Positions 14,340-62,816 of a stretch of 64,000 bases of DNA are shown piece after piece. The notes beneath the pieces were generated by a model that was given only the letters and a program-made list of their open reading frames with translations, had not been told where the DNA came from and did not search any database. Position 1 is the stretch's first letter, and each line of letters begins with the position of its first letter. The DNA comes from Candidatus Aenigmatarchaeota archaeon (GTDB lineage Archaea > Aenigmatarchaeota > Aenigmatarchaeia > GW2011-AR5 > JAGGXF01). The position numbers and the translations under genes were made by a program. The stretch lies in NCBI GenBank assembly GCA_021163205.1, contig JAGGXF010000003.1:1200-65199 (forward strand). Direction: 5' to 3'.

Positions 14340-15779
14340 TTATCCTTTCATAACAGCCAAAGGCACAAGCTTTGCAACAAGCTTTGCTATGCCCAAAGCA
14401 TCTGAAACGCGCACAACTTCGTCTATATCTTTGTAAGCTTTTGGCGCTTCCTCTGCCAAAACCTTCCACGAAGCAGAACGAACAAGTATATTCTGCTTTT
14501 CCAACTCTTCCTTAACCTTTTCACCACGCGTGGTTCTTAACATCTGTGCCCGACTAGAGACCCTGCCTGCGCCATGCGCCGTAGAGCCGAATGTAAGATT
14601 CATCGCCTCTTTTGTTCCATGAAGCACATAAGATGCAGTACCCATTGAACCGGGAATAAGAACAGGTTGTCCAACTTTTCTGTACACAGCAGGAACATCT
14701 TCATGTCCTGGTGGAAAACTTCGTGTCGCACCTTTTCTGTGAACATAAACTTTTCTTGTTTCACCGTCTATTTTATGCTTCTCAACTTTGCCAATGTTGT
14801 GACAAACATCATAAACAATATGCATACCTAGGTCTTCTGCGCTCTGGCCAATTACTTTTTGGAAAGCCTCGCGTGTCCAGTGGGTTATTAATTGACGATT
14901 GCACCATGCAAAGTTGGCAGCACATTTCATAGCTTCATAGTACTCTGCACAGGTGTCTGTTCCGGCCGGAGCATAAATGAGCTCTCGGTCCGGAAGCTTA
15001 GAAACGATGTCATTAAATTTATTTTCCATCTCCCTCAGATAATCTGTACAAACTTGATGACCAAATCCCCGAGAACCGGTATGAATCATAATACAGACTT
15101 GACCTTTTTCAAGACCAAAAACCTTAGCAACATCCTCGTTAAATATGTCTTTTATAAGTTGTATCTCCACAAAATGATTTCCTGCACCTGTTGTTCCTAT
15201 TTGCTCTTTACCGCGCTTAAGAGCCTTGTCAGAAACAGTGTCTGTATCAGCAAGCATGCTTCCATTCTCTTCTAGAAACTTCGGGTCTTCCTTCCAAGCA
15301 TATCCTTGTTCGACGGCCCACTTAACGCCTTTAGCAAGCGGCTCTAAAAGTTCTGACTTGCTCAATCGCAGCTTACCTGCCCGCCCAACCCCAGACGGTA
15401 TGTTTTTGAAAATCGTGTCCAGAAGCTCTTTGAGGTGTGGCTTAATATCGCTAAGCGTAAGGTTTGTGCGAATAATTCGAACGCCACAATTGATATCAAA
15501 ACCTATACCTCCGGGCGAAAGCCCACCTTTTTCATAATCAAGAGCAGCAACACCACCTATTGGAAAACCATATCCCTGATGACAGTCAGGTAATGCTATT
15601 GAATACTTATATATTCCAGGCAACGCAGCAACATTTTTAGTCTGCTCTATTGTGTTGTCCCCCTTTATTTTTTCAATAAGCTTTTCAGATGCAAAAATCC
15701 GACCAGGAACATTCATTTGACCTTCCTTCGGTATCTCCCAGACCATATCATTTATCTTTTTCAATTCCATAACCACCAC
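14340..15779 (-). CDS. rtcB: RNA-splicing ligase RtcB
   Basis: 479 aa. Motifs GIGFDINCGVR, HTGSRGFGHQV and NHAGAGR-like. Full-length with no intein. Confidence 0.9.
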   Translation of the reverse strand: MVVMELKKINDMVWEIPKEGQMNVPGRIFASEKLIEKIKGDNTIEQTKNVAALPGIYKYSIALPDCHQGYGFPIGGVAALDYEKGGLSPGGIGFDINCGVRIIRTNLTLSDIKPHLKELLDTIFKNIPSGVGRAGKLRLSKSELLEPLAKGVKWAVEQGYAWKEDPKFLEENGSMLADTDTVSDKALKRGKEQIGTTGAGNHFVEIQLIKDIFNEDVAKVFGLEKGQVCIMIHTGSRGFGHQVCTDYLREMENKFNDIVSKLPDRELIYAPAGTDTCAEYYEAMKCAANFAWCNRQLITHWTREAFQKVIGQSAEDLGMHIVYDVCHNIGKVEKHKIDGETRKVYVHRKGATRSFPPGHEDVPAVYRKVGQPVLIPGSMGTASYVLHGTKEAMNLTFGSTAHGAGRVSSRAQMLRTTRGEKVKEELEKQNILVRSASWKVLAEEAPKAYKDIDEVVRVSDALGIAKLVAKLVPLAVMKG

Positions 15780-15796
15780 CCTTCTGAATGTGTAAA

Positions 15797-16237
15797 CTAT
15801 GTGTCGACTATAACTTGAACTCTATATCCACCGTCTGTTTTTTTTATCTCCATCTTATGATACGTTATTGCTTTGACCTCTCCACGTATCTCGTGCCTAG
15901 CTAAATCTTCTCCACGTGCAACAGCATCCAAAAGCCATTTACTATCGGCACGAGTTATAGTTACAACAAATTCACCAAAAACAACATGCTCCGTGTCAAA
16001 TATGAATAAAATCTCTGACAACCAGTCATAGAGCAGTGCCTTATCGTCTCGAGCTTCTACATGAATTTTTCTTTCCATCTTTTTATTTATCTTCGATGTA
16101 TCTGTTATTATTTCTGTCATCGCCAACGCTGCATTAGCAAAAGCCTGTTCCAATGTATTGCCAAAAGCCGCAAAAGCACGATCTGCTGTCGCGATGTCAA
16201 GAAACTCATATCTTTTCTCCATTTTATCATACCACAA
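15797..16237 (-). CDS. archease (RtcB activator)
   Basis: 146 aa. MEKRYEFLDIATADRAFAAFGNTLEQAFANAALAM is the archease N-terminal motif. Located immediately upstream of rtcB. Confidence 0.8.
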   Translation of the reverse strand: MWYDKMEKRYEFLDIATADRAFAAFGNTLEQAFANAALAMTEIITDTSKINKKMERKIHVEARDDKALLYDWLSEILFIFDTEHVVFGEFVVTITRADSKWLLDAVARGEDLARHEIRGEVKAITYHKMEIKKTDGGYRVQVIVDT

Positions 16238-19632: not shown

Positions 19633-19726
19633 GGGTCTGTAGTCTAGCTAATGCGCAAGCATCTAGAATGGTCTAGGATCGGGCCTTCGGGAGGCTCAGA
19701 CAGGAGTTCAAATCTCCTCAGACCCA
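19633..19726 (+). tRNA. tRNA-Pro(CGG) with putative 20-nt non-canonical intron in the D-loop (19649-19668)
   Basis: Acceptor GGGTCTG/CAGACCC. T-arm AGGAG-TTCAAAT-CTCCT. Anticodon stem-loop GGGCC-TTCGGGA-GGCTC (anticodon CGG, U33, G37). The D-region is 20 nt too long: AGC[TAATGCGCAAGCATCTAGAA]TGGTCTA. Confidence 0.7.
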
Positions 19727-40880: not shown

Positions 40881-41045
40881 ATGGTATCTAGAAAATTGTT
40901 GGACATTCTAGCCTGCCCAAAATGCAAGAAACCGATAGACTATGATAAAGAAAATAATCAACTAATTTGTCACAGATGTAGATTAAAGTTTAAAGTAAAA
41001 GATGAGATTCCGGATATGTTGCTGGAAGACGCAGAAGCATTTTAG
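40881..41045 (+). CDS. Trm112-like small zinc-finger protein (DUF343)
   Basis: MVSRKLLDILACPKCKKPIDYDKENNQLICHRCRLKFKVKDEIPDMLLEDAEAF matches the Trm112/YbaR pattern (LLxILxCPxC...L.C..C...YP..DGIPxML). Confidence 0.6.
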   Translation: MVSRKLLDILACPKCKKPIDYDKENNQLICHRCRLKFKVKDEIPDMLLEDAEAF

Positions 41046-41047
41046 GT

Positions 41048-41195
41048 GCTGGGGTAGCCAAGTCAGGTCCAAGGCGCCAGCTTGGAGTTTAAAACAGAAA
41101 GCTGGTGAGCTTCGGCTCGCGTGGGTTCAAACCACCCCCTACGAGTTCGTCACTTAGTCGTAGACGGAGGGGGTGTGAAAATCCCATCCCCAGCG
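41048..41195 (+). tRNA. tRNA-Ser(GGA), class II, 148 nt, with two putative introns (anticodon loop ~12 nt; T-loop ~51 nt)
   Basis: Acceptor GCTGGGG/CCCCAGC plus G73. D-arm GCC-AAGTCAGGTCCAA-GGC. Anticodon stem CCAGC/GCTGG with loop TTGGA(G) interrupted by TTTAAAACAGAA. Variable arm TGAGCTTCGGCTCG. The T-arm 5' half GTGGGTTCAAA is separated from its 3' half TCCCAT by ~51 nt. That insert includes a CACCCCC/GGGGGTG helix. The intron-free tRNA at 57476 has the same T-arm uninterrupted. Confidence 0.6.
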
Positions 41196-41249: not shown

Positions 41250-41783
41250 ATGGCACTAAGACCAGCAAAATGTTATAGAAAGGTGCATCGCGCCTACACA
41301 AGAGTATCAAGAAGAAAACCTAGGAAAAGCTATGTCAAGGGTGTTCCTGGCTCTAAAATTCACCAATTCGAGATGGGCGAAAAAGGAAAATATGACTATG
41401 TCCTATATCTCGTAGCTAAACAATCCGTGCAAATAAGGCACAATGCTCTTGAGGCTGCAAGAATGGCAGTCACACAACACATAACGAAGAGACTAGGTAA
41501 GGGAAAAAGCTATTTTTTCAAGGTTAGACCATATCCTCATCAGGTTCTGCGCGAAAATCCTCTGGCAACCGGTGCCGGAGCTGACAGGTTTCAACAGGGT
41601 ATGAGAATGTCATTCGGCAGACCCATAGGAACTGCAGCCATAGTTAAGCCAGACCAGAAGATATTAGAGCTTCATATAAACAACTCCGGGCTCGCTGTTG
41701 CCAAAAAGGCGTTGAAGATTGCCGCCCACAAACTCCCCACAACCACAAGGATAGTGATAGAAGAAACTAAAACAAATAAATAA
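41250..41783 (+). CDS. rpl10e: 50S ribosomal protein L10e (uL16)
   Basis: MALRPAKCYRKVHRAYTRVSRRKPRKSYVKGVPGSKIHQFEMG is the L10e N-terminal consensus. Confidence 0.85.
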   Translation: MALRPAKCYRKVHRAYTRVSRRKPRKSYVKGVPGSKIHQFEMGEKGKYDYVLYLVAKQSVQIRHNALEAARMAVTQHITKRLGKGKSYFFKVRPYPHQVLRENPLATGAGADRFQQGMRMSFGRPIGTAAIVKPDQKILELHINNSGLAVAKKALKIAAHKLPTTTRIVIEETKTNK

Positions 41784-57475: not shown

Positions 57476-57620
57476 GCTGGGGTACCCAAGTCATGGTCTT
57501 TTTGACCACTTGAATGGCCAAAGGGGCAGGTTCATTTGACTCCTGACCAAAGGTCAAATGATGTCATACTTAAGATCCTGTGACTTAGTGTCTGCGTGGG
57601 TTCAAATCCCATCCCCAGCA
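57476..57620 (+). tRNA. class II tRNA (probably tRNA-Leu, anticodon likely CAG) with putative 20-nt D-loop intron (57499-57518) and ~38-nt anticodon-loop intron
   Basis: Acceptor GCTGGGG/CCCCAGC plus A73. Intact T-arm GTGGG-TTCAAAT-CCCAT. D-arm CCC-AAGTCATGGTC[TTTTTGACCACTTGAATGGC]CAAA-GGG is collinear with the tRNA-Ser D-arm once the insert is removed. Anticodon stem GCAGG/CCTGT encloses ~45 nt (TTC...AGAT). Long variable arm GACTTAGTGTCTGC. Isotype assignment is uncertain. Confidence 0.55.
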
Positions 57621-62387: not shown

Positions 62388-62816
62388 TTAGGATACGGAA
62401 TGTGCCCAAGAATCTTGTATTGTCATCTGATTGGAACGAAGAGAAGCGGTTAAAAATATGGTGGGGCAAGAGATTGTGTAATTCACATCAAGATATTTTC
62501 CTTTTTTTCCCATTTCTTCTCTGGCGAACTCTATAAACTTGTTCAGATTTTTTGTGACGTTTGAGCAATCAGATGAGTCTATCACATTATTCAAGTCGGA
62601 TTGGATATTTTCAAAATAATAATCTTCATCTATGGTTGCAGAAGAAGAGGTATCAATCAAATAATAGCCCTTAAAAAGCATTGAAATTACAAGGAAAGCG
62701 CTGGATATGACAATAGCTGATATTATGAACCACTGCCCTTTTTTTCCAGCGAAATGCTCCGAGTTATGTGTCAAATCATATGATCTTGATAATCTGGGCA
62801 TGGAAACTATCACCAA
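62388..62816 (-). CDS. small hypothetical membrane-anchored protein
   Basis: 142 aa with a single N-terminal TM helix (WFIISAIVISSAFLVISMLF). Confidence 0.35.
   Translation of the reverse strand: MVIVSMPRLSRSYDLTHNSEHFAGKKGQWFIISAIVISSAFLVISMLFKGYYLIDTSSSATIDEDYYFENIQSDLNNVIDSSDCSNVTKNLNKFIEFAREEMGKKGKYLDVNYTISCPTIFLTASLRSNQMTIQDSWAHSVS

Follow-up and report, generated by a model that had tools for sequence, protein, structure and literature searches.

The BHB motif of tRNA introns is defined as a 4-bp helix between two 3-nt bulges bearing the splice sites, with h and h' as the outer helices (PMC4090602, PMC3239211). Positions 37/38 and 59/60 are both listed among the archaeal intron sites, the latter as a non-canonical one, and the known intron lengths extend from 11 to 129 nt (PMC4090602). 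In the DPANN archaeon ARMAN-2, tRNA-Cys carries a 13-nt intron at 59/60, which is cleaved in vitro by the EndA of this organism, and tRNA-Pro(GGG) contains strict-BHB introns at 53/54 and 59/60 (PMC3239211). In the Thermoproteales, a single tRNA gene may contain up to three BHB introns at canonical and non-canonical sites, including 59/60; the introns are gained and lost rapidly among close relatives, introns of similar sequence are found at more than one position, and there is evidence for transposition (PMC4033280, PMC4090602). The multi-intron tRNA genes of the Thermoproteales were reported by Sugahara et al. (2008) and Fujishima et al. (2010), as summarized in PMC4033280 and PMC4090602. 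Among the Asgard archaea, some genomes have at least one intron in 92–95% of their tRNA genes, and the tRNA introns of Atabeyarchaeia and Freyarchaeia are often non-canonical and multiple, with standard callers reporting too few tRNAs (PMC11291895). No description of tRNA introns in Aenigmatarchaeota was found in the literature searched, the coverage of which was incomplete.

Here, we describe a tRNA-Ser(GGA) gene from a 64-kb stretch of DNA, the whole of which was analyzed and is referred to below as the window. According to L10e, the nearest genomes are MAGs of Candidatus Aenigmatarchaeota (98% and 83% identity). Our reading of the sequence indicates that the gene is very probably a functional, syntenically conserved tRNA-Ser(GGA) of Aenigmatarchaeota, the 148-nt transcript of which would lose two BHB-type introns to yield an 86-nt class II tRNA.

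The locus resembles those of ARMAN-2, a member of the same superphylum, in the 59/60 T-loop site and in the use of the T-stem as the outer BHB helix; with tRNA-Pro(GGG) of ARMAN-2, it also shares the strict hBHBh' motif and the presence of more than one intron. Unlike the ARMAN-2 genes, it belongs to the phylum Aenigmatarchaeota and to a class II tRNA-Ser(GGA), the partner intron is the canonical one at 37/38, and the 59/60 intron is longer (50 nt here and 47–102 nt in the relatives). The EndA of ARMAN-2 is of the epsilon2 type, whereas for the present organism an enzyme of broad specificity is predicted. The Thermoproteales are hyperthermophilic, GC-rich members of TACK that have an (alpha-beta)2 EndA with the crenarchaeal loop, in contrast to the present DNA, which is of DPANN origin and has a GC content of about 38%. 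Both T-loop introns at 59/60 and multi-intron tRNA genes have previously been described, namely in ARMAN-2, Thermoproteales, and Asgard archaea; the gene described here is a clean new example of them and reveals no new mechanism.

Structure of the tRNA-Ser(GGA) Gene

The gene occupies positions 41048–41195 of the forward strand and, as read from the sequence, consists of three exons (40, 32, and 14 nt) and two introns. Its layout is GCTGGGG-TA-GCC-AAGTCAGGTCCAA-GGC-G-CCAGC-TTGGAG[TTTAAAACAGAA]A-GCTGG-TGAGCTTCGGCTCGC-GTGGG-TTCAAA[50 nt]T-CCCAT-CCCCAGC-G, in which GCTGGGG and CCCCAGC form the acceptor stem, GCC...GGC the D-arm, and the last G is the discriminator. The exons were delimited from the sequence and from the ARAGORN cloverleaf of the spliced product. 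Exon 1 (41048..41087, forward strand; tRNA positions 1–37) includes the acceptor 5' strand, the D-arm, the 5' strand of the anticodon stem, and the loop up to G37, with the anticodon GGA at 41084–41086. Between the strands of the anticodon stem (CCAGC/GCTGG) lie 19 nt, i.e., the 7-nt loop TTGGAGA and 12 extra nucleotides. The latter are intron 1 (TTTAAAACAGAA, 41088..41099, forward strand), which is located at the canonical site 37/38 and has a relaxed hBH/BHL-type motif; the original prediction had rightly placed an insert of ~12 nt in the anticodon loop.

Exon 2 (41100..41131, forward strand; positions 38–59) consists of the 3' strand of the anticodon stem, the long variable arm TGAGCTTCGGCTCGC, the T-stem 5' strand GTGGG, and the TTCAAA portion of the T-loop. 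Here, the T-arm is interrupted: GTGGG-TTCAAA is followed by T-CCCAT only 50 nt downstream. The intervening intron 2 (41132..41181, forward strand) lies at site 59/60 of the T-loop and is delimited by a strict hBHBh' motif, by folding, by the BHB-excision scans, and by comparison with relatives. An intron had been predicted at this location with a length of ~51 nt; the location was correct, and the length is 50 nt. Exon 3 (41182..41195, forward strand; positions 60–73) contains T60, the T-stem 3' strand CCCAT, the acceptor 3' strand CCCCAGC, and the discriminator G. CCA is not encoded at the 3' end of the gene, where position 41195 is followed by TTG.

When both introns are removed, the resulting 86-nt sequence is called a class II tRNA-Ser(gga) by ARAGORN at the default threshold. 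The product has a 7-bp acceptor stem, a 5-bp T-stem with one G.U pair, the T-loop TTCAAAT, a long variable arm, and G73, and the predicted splice junctions join TTGGAG to AGCTGG (intron 1) and GGTTCAAA to TCCCAT (intron 2; GTTCAAA to TCCCAT). It displays the hallmarks of a class II tRNA-Ser, namely the serine anticodon, G73, U8, G18G19, U33, T54-T55-C56, and the long variable arm; G73 is the serine discriminator in archaea. The sequence and the ARAGORN call on the spliced product thus bear out the predicted identity of the locus as a 148-nt tRNA-Ser(GGA) gene with two introns, and the expected splice product GTGGG-TTCAAAT-CCCAT is supported by the same call together with the BHB layout.

Splice-Site Motifs of the Two Introns

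Intron 2 has the strict 3-4-3 hBHBh' motif. Helix H1 is the T-stem itself (GTGGG/CCCAT, 41121–41125 with 41183–41187); H2 is formed by TTCA of the T-loop (positions 54–57; 41126–41129) and TGAA of the intron (41176–41179); H3 is formed by CACCCCCT (41133–41140) and AGGGGGTG (41168–41175), and the bulges are AA^C (41130–41132) and AA^T (41180–41182). The ends of the intron pair mutually (CACCCCCU/AGGGGGUG). It had been supposed that the exon–intron boundaries could be placed in a BHB motif, and those of the T-loop fall exactly within the strict hBHBh'. The CACCCCC/GGGGGTG helix on which this supposition was based does exist, and the intron is of the BHB type, but the helix is the intron-internal h' of the full 3-4-3 hBHBh' and not the entire motif.

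The lowest-energy fold of the precursor as a whole, like that of the T-arm segment, contained the exact 3-4-3 hBHBh'. The free energy of the 67-nt segment comprising the T-arm and the intron was -26.8 kcal/mol versus a mean of -17.7 for dinucleotide shuffles (z = -3.0), and this stability was equalled by 1 of 200 shuffles. In each bulge, the EndA cut follows the second nucleotide, which puts intron 2 between A59 and T60. The assumed cleavage position agrees with the review literature, according to which the anticodon nucleotides 34–35 of canonical introns lie within the central helix.

The motif of intron 1 is of the relaxed hBH/BHL type and not a full BHB. U32-U33-G34 pairs with ACAG near the 3' end of the intron, so that three of the four positions of H2 (TTGG/ACAG) are paired, and one of the 3 bp of this central helix is a G.U pair. 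The bulge AA^A (3 nt) contains the 3' splice site, the terminal loop contains the 5' one, and the h' helix is absent. Such relaxed motifs are substrates only of the broad-specificity EndA types (PMC3239211, PMC5829648). The sites (37/38 and 59/60) and lengths (12 and 50 nt) of the two introns fall inside the documented range. A drawing of intron 1 with a GTT/AAC stem and a 3x3 internal loop was rejected, as this fold is not conserved in L001, the lineage with 83% L10e identity described below.

Detection of tRNA Genes in the Window

Loose BHB motifs are frequent. With H1 and H3 of at least 2 each, 13,693 candidates were counted on both strands of the window, and several hundred remained with H1 and H3 of at least 4. 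Due to this frequency, the motif alone is no proof of an intron, and it counts only where its excision restores a tRNA. In an unbiased scan, each BHB candidate was excised singly or in pairs on both strands, and the resulting 51,045 sequences were submitted to ARAGORN at the default threshold; a candidate passed if a tRNA spanning the excision junctions was called. Three loci passed: the tRNA-Ser(GGA), a tRNA-Pro(CGG) at 19633–19726, and a tRNA-Leu(UAA) at 57476–57620, both of the latter on the strength of the scan and the ARAGORN calls. The tRNA-Pro(CGG) has a relaxed D-loop intron. The tRNA-Leu(UAA) has two non-canonical introns, and its uninterrupted T-arm is identical to that of the spliced tRNA-Ser(GGA). 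This was the gene that the original prediction had used as an intact reference for the T-arm, and the comparison holds; however, the gene is not the serine paralogue that it was believed to be but a tRNA-Leu(UAA) with discriminator A. A further BHB candidate that looked strong, 14240/14336, was dismissed as a chance match in an AT-rich intergenic stretch, where no Rfam match was found.

In the unspliced window, ARAGORN called no tRNA genes in either the default or the intron mode (-i), and at the relaxed threshold (-ps90) it gave only a shortened tRNA-Ser. At the gathering threshold, the single tRNA detected with Rfam in the window was the tRNA-Pro; the tRNA-Ser(GGA) locus scored 24.2 bits against the Rfam tRNA model, with a threshold of 29, and the false 3' end of this match was taken from the start of intron 2. 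Introns at non-canonical sites are present in all three tRNA genes of the 64-kb window. In this respect, and in coming from an uncultured organism, the window resembles Atabeyarchaeia and Freyarchaeia; unlike them, it belongs to another superphylum, and the frequency refers to three genes of one window and not to a genome. Since ARAGORN misses all three genes and Rfam finds one, the tRNA counts of Aenigmatarchaeota and other DPANN archaea are likely underestimates where BHB-aware tools are not used, and statements on "missing tRNA" in DPANN MAGs are likely to be doubtful as well.

Two other kinds of interrupted tRNA genes were considered. Group I and II introns have a conserved catalytic core and several hundred nucleotides; no sign of self-splicing introns of these groups was found in intron 2, which is 50 nt long, and the only Rfam matches with E <= 1 were to tRNA. 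The three exons are colinear within 148 nt, which differs from the layout of a split or circularly permuted tRNA gene, whose halves are found at different loci or in permuted order.

Conservation of the Locus in Related Aenigmatarchaeota

A tRNA-Ser(GGA) between Trm112 and L10e, or upstream of L10e, recurs in related Aenigmatarchaeota assemblies. Orthologous loci were gathered with L10e as the synteny anchor. In L006, L067, L072, L073, L074, and the loci with 50–57% identity, tRNA-Ser was absent upstream of L10e, and for this reason the comparison set includes eight lineages, which are designated below by their L10e identity.

The window (100%) has no D-loop intron, 12 nt at 37/38, and 50 nt at 59/60. 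The 98% lineage, represented by six independent assemblies, also has no D-loop intron and has 12 nt and 47 nt at the two other sites; its exons are identical to those of the window, and its intron 2 differs by a small indel in the interior and by a single C.A mismatch in H3. Four assemblies of the 83% lineage share the absence of a D-loop intron and the 12 nt at 37/38, with 102 nt at 59/60, whereas two NCBI MAGs of the 74% lineage have introns at all three sites (85 nt in the D-loop, 11 nt at 37/38, and 54 nt at 59/60). In the 68% lineage (L007), an intron of 67 nt is found at 59/60, with none in the D-loop or at 37/38; in the 66% lineage (L069), there are 10 nt at 37/38, the D-loop has no intron, and neither has the 59/60 site, as the T-loop is intact. 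Two lineages have 63% identity: L071 has about 51 nt at 59/60 and none in the D-loop or at 37/38, along with an extra insertion on the 5' side of the anticodon loop, and L070 has no intron at any of these sites. In L069 and L071, 34–49 nt are present in the variable region; these two lineages were left out of the covariation alignment because clean BHB boundaries could not be placed.

The 59/60 intron is present in six lineages, with lengths of 47–102 nt and unrelated interiors. Its H2 and bulges are near-invariant across the carriers; the exceptions are L007, with one A.G mismatch in H2 and the bulges AA^A and TA^T, and L071, with TTCG/CGAA as H2. H3 covaries among the lineages (CACCCCCT/AGGGGGTG, CAAATCC/GGGTTTG, CCAA/TTGG, and AGCC/GGCT). 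For the window, L004, and L071, the fold of lowest energy includes the exact BHB, and the lowest-energy folds of L001, L065, and L007 (three of the six lineages) are without the weak AU-rich 4-bp H2. In these three, H2 loses to alternative pairings despite complementary bases (with one A.G mismatch in L007).

An intron of 10–12 nt at 37/38 is also found in L001, L065, and L069. Its helix partner varies (ACAG, ACAA, CTGA, and GCAA), and over four lineages the site, the length, and this partner show either conservation or covariation. Comparison of the window with L001 showed differences at 4 of 86 exon positions, two of which make up one compensatory acceptor pair and one of which changes a G.U pair to A-U; intron 1 differed at 5 of 12 positions, and intron 2 could be aligned at its ends only.

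Splicing in silico gave a product of 86 nt in each of five lineages, and four orthologues, in addition to the product of the window, were called tRNA-Ser(gga) by ARAGORN at the default threshold. In the five-lineage alignment of the spliced sequences, standard pairs were found in 100% of 121 cells, versus 32–48% in slid controls. Both sides have changed in 12 of the 25 cloverleaf pairs, including three in the T-stem, the strands of which flank the intron.

Alternative Explanations

The failure of ARAGORN to call a gene in the default and intron modes and the Rfam score of 24.2 bits, which is below 29, could be explained by a pseudogene, i.e., by a former tRNA-Ser inactivated by the T-loop insertion, with the real tRNA-Ser(GGA) located elsewhere. 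However, the insertion occurs exactly where the strict hBHBh' can form, and the interrupted gene is syntenic in lineages whose L10e is 63–83% identical, with the junctions kept and the interiors different. The spliced cloverleaf, moreover, is 100% paired and has 12 compensatory pairs, among them those of the split T-stem, which is not expected of a decaying gene. The original prediction had itself raised this objection, and it is contradicted by the orthologues, which have the intron at the same position, with covariation in the BHB helix, and in which 12 compensatory pair changes are seen; the covariation largely refutes the pseudogene, which we consider very unlikely. The same covariation excludes a shorter gene of 96–97 nt (41047/8–41143/4), in which one 12-nt intron would reside in the anticodon loop, CCAC and CCCC.. 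at the start of intron 2 would serve as the 3' strands of the T-stem and acceptor stem, and the downstream 50 nt would lie outside the gene. Such a gene is drawn by ARAGORN at -ps90 and by the sub-threshold Rfam match, but it has the acceptor mismatches c.a and t.t and a shortened T-loop and stays below the threshold in both tools. It is also not conserved: L001 has CCAAATCCC and L007 has AAGCC at the corresponding place, neither of which pairs with the acceptor 5' strand, whereas covariation with the 5' strand is seen for CCCCAGC, the true 3' strand (G7-C66 to A7-T66). We give this shorter model hardly any credence.

A further possibility accepts the gene and its splicing and supposes that the T-loop intron is kept for a function, such as shielding the T-arm and 3' end against integrating elements, setting the order of maturation, or providing a stable circular intron RNA. 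The T-arm and 3' end of tRNA genes are a common integration target, and the hypothesis that disrupted tRNA genes resist integrating elements is said to have been put forward by Randau and Soll. A function would be in line with the persistence of the 59/60 intron over 63–100% L10e identity, a range in which introns at other sites have been gained and lost, but this persistence would be expected equally if the intron is lost slowly or if the site is a hot spot of insertion. The interior is conserved neither in sequence nor in length (47–102 nt), no C/D-box motifs are read from the sequence and no Rfam match was found, and in L069 and L070 the T-loop of this gene is intact. We therefore regard a retained function as unlikely. 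A guide-RNA role of intron 2 was rejected, as its sequence contains neither a C box (RUGAUGA) nor a D box (CUGA). For the functional tRNA-Ser(GGA) with two BHB-type introns, which is the reading we prefer, the fast turnover among the relatives, with 0–3 introns at one locus, suggests that both introns probably have no function beyond being tolerated.

Evolutionary Implications

Among the relatives, the number of introns at the syntenic tRNA-Ser(GGA) locus ranges from 0 to 3, and a 23/25-nt hairpin module (GCCTTTYTC-CTTTGAAAAGAGAAA) is common to the T-loop intron of one lineage and the D-loop intron of another. In both the variable number of introns and the module common to D-loop and T-loop introns, the locus is similar to the tRNA genes of the Thermoproteales. 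We tentatively suggest that Aenigmatarchaeota might be one more hot spot, as yet undescribed, where BHB introns proliferate and continue to move. This suggestion is based on the 0–3 introns at the D-loop, 37/38, 59/60, and possibly other sites, on the shared module, and on the interruption of all three tRNAs of the window. If it is true genome-wide, the clade would offer a graded natural series for BHB-intron gain and movement, and the tRNA complements of DPANN MAGs would be systematically under-called. The evolutionary value of the locus lies in its syntenic series of 0–3 introns and in the retention of the 59/60 intron over a wide divergence; with it, a DPANN phylum joins Thermoproteales, ARMAN-2, and some Asgard archaea, the small number of clades suited to the study of intron gain, loss, and possible transposition.

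Predicted Maturation and Genomic Context

As the sequence and the comparison with relatives show, the T-stem of the precursor can form as in the mature tRNA, UUCA of the T-loop (54–57) can pair with the terminal UGAA of intron 2, and the ends of the intron can pair mutually, which results in a 4-bp helix that separates two bulges of 3 nt each, i.e., in the strict hBHBh'. By analogy with the archaeal pathway, EndA would then cleave the four sites, in each bulge behind its second nucleotide, and generate ends with 2',3'-cyclic phosphate and 5'-OH; the three exons would be ligated by RtcB together with archease, and CCA would be added after the ligation. Until intron 2 leaves, the T-loop nucleotides 54–59 are presumably held in H2 and bulge 1. 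As intron 2 occupies the T-loop, the T-loop/D-loop elbow would be unable to form before its removal, and the modifications at U54, U55, and A58, the last by a TrmI-like enzyme, would have to wait; splicing would thus probably be an early and obligatory step of maturation.

RtcB joins the tRNA exon halves once the endonuclease has cut. The gene for this RNA ligase is located in the window at 14340..15779 on the reverse strand (Pfam PF01139, E = 2e-171) and is adjoined by that for archease, the RtcB activator, at 15797..16237 on the same strand (Pfam PF01951, E = 5e-43). EndA was not found in the 64-kb window by tblastn with an M. jannaschii EndA probe validated versus PDB 1a79, or by Pfam scans of 20 ORFs, and it was likewise not found in the orthologous loci gathered for comparison; it would have to be encoded outside the window. 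The alpha4 and alpha'2 types of EndA need a strict motif, and the (alpha-beta)2 and epsilon2 types accept relaxed ones; several DPANN lineages have an alpha4 EndA with an extra L3 loop, a feature that goes along with numerous disrupted tRNA genes (PMC3239211, PMC5829648). The motif of intron 2 is strict and could be cleaved by any type of EndA, so that an enzyme of relaxed specificity is not needed for it. The relaxed motif of intron 1 at 37/38, together with the relaxed D-loop intron of tRNA-Pro, leads us to predict a broad-specificity EndA, as reported for DPANN lineages.

The tRNA-Ser(GGA) gene is flanked on both sides by genes of the same strand. Upstream, a Trm112-like zinc-ribbon protein is encoded at 40881..41045 on the forward strand (Pfam PF03966, E = 2.5e-13), with its stop codon 2 nt upstream of the tRNA gene; this neighbor is also present in L001, L059, L060, L063, L064, and L065. 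Downstream, the gene for the ribosomal protein L10e/uL16 is located at 41250..41783 on the forward strand (Pfam PF00252, E = 4.6e-32). The neighboring genes are archaeal; besides Trm112 and L10e, which were identified with Pfam, we take several to be L24e, S28e, L7Ae, S27e, aIF2-alpha, Nop10, PAC2, and Rpo6 from reading their translations. The window also encodes Trm1, a GCD14/TrmI-like methyltransferase, and Cbf5.

Non-canonical introns and tRNA gene calling

All three tRNA genes of the 64-kb window contain non-canonical introns, and ARAGORN run with default settings on the whole window called none of the three (0/3); together, these two results suggest that tRNA genes are under-called in this lineage. 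At the gathering threshold, tRNA-Pro(CGG) was the only one of the window tRNAs detected by Rfam (44.4 bits). In tRNA-Ser(GGA) (41048–41195, +), the start of the second intron (41132–41143, CCACCCCC) mimics the 3′ strand of the T-stem and acceptor stem, and for this reason both Rfam and relaxed ARAGORN wrongly ended the gene near 41143.

The tRNA-Leu(UAA) gene (57476–57620, +) carries two introns with strict bulge-helix-bulge (BHB) motifs: a 22-nt D-loop intron (57493–57514, +) with the central helix CAAG/CTTG and the inner helix TGGTC/GACCA, and a 37-nt intron at 30/31 in the anticodon stem (57531–57567, +), the inner helix of which comprises 10 bp. The 86-nt spliced product was recognized by ARAGORN as a clean tRNA-Leu(taa). 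It has the same acceptor stem and T-arm as tRNA-Ser(GGA), with the discriminator base (A in Leu, G in Ser) being the sole difference in this part of the molecule. The tRNA-Pro(CGG) gene (19633–19726, +) has a 19-nt D-loop intron (19650–19668) with the central helix CTAG/CTAG, the inner helix ATGC/GCAT and a closing GCAA loop; its BHB is relaxed, since the outer helix consists of just 1 bp.

Introns in orthologous tRNA-Ser(GGA) genes

Among the relatives' loci gathered by L10e synteny, those from two Aenigmatarchaeota MAGs of NCBI (L065/L066; GCA_021157845.1 and GCA_053938065.1; 74% L10e identity) include a tRNA-Ser(GGA) orthologue at 2588–2823 with three introns, located in the D-loop (85 nt), at 37/38 (11 nt) and at 59/60 (54 nt). 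The D-loop intron of this orthologue and that of tRNA-Leu(UAA) in the window have in common both the site and the BHB core CAAG|TC^A ... CTTG|AA^N (^, splice site). In addition, a 25-nt hairpin module, GCCTTT(T/C)TC-CTTTGAAAAGAGAAA, is found with 23/25 identity in one intron of L065 and one of L007, a locus with 68% L10e identity. Both host introns belong to tRNA-Ser(GGA), the 85-nt D-loop intron in the 74% lineage (L065, 2605–2689) and a 67-nt T-loop intron in the 68% lineage (L007, 931–997), and the local alignment score of 38 exceeded the highest value obtained with shuffled sequences (21). On the basis of this sequence similarity, the module is a possible sign of an intron moving between positions; a search of the window for it found no copy.

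In the more distant orthologues of L069 (2795–2924) and L071 (about 1247–1456), with 66% and 63% L10e identity, respectively, 34–49 nt separate the anticodon stem from the T-stem, and L071 has an insertion of ~31 nt on the 5′ side of the anticodon loop. No clean BHB boundaries could be placed in either orthologue, and the 34–49-nt stretch could represent an unusually long variable arm or an additional intron.

Transcription and other genes of the window

tRNA-Ser(GGA) begins 2 nt past the stop codon of the Trm112 gene (40881–41045, +), and therefore its promoter, if there is one, must lie within the Trm112 coding sequence. The sole TATA-like element in 40985–41047 is TTTAAAGT at 40989–40996, ~55 nt upstream of the tRNA; alternatively, Trm112 and tRNA-Ser(GGA) are co-transcribed. 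Clear boxes of the TTTTTAAA type are located 10–45 nt 5′ of the tRNA in L007, L069 and L070 (63% L10e identity), where Trm112 is not upstream.

The ORFs 1073–1594 (−, 173 aa) and 62388–62816 (−, 142 aa) had no Pfam match at E ≤ 0.001. The rtcB and archease genes adjoin on one strand (14340–16237, −) and probably form an operon.
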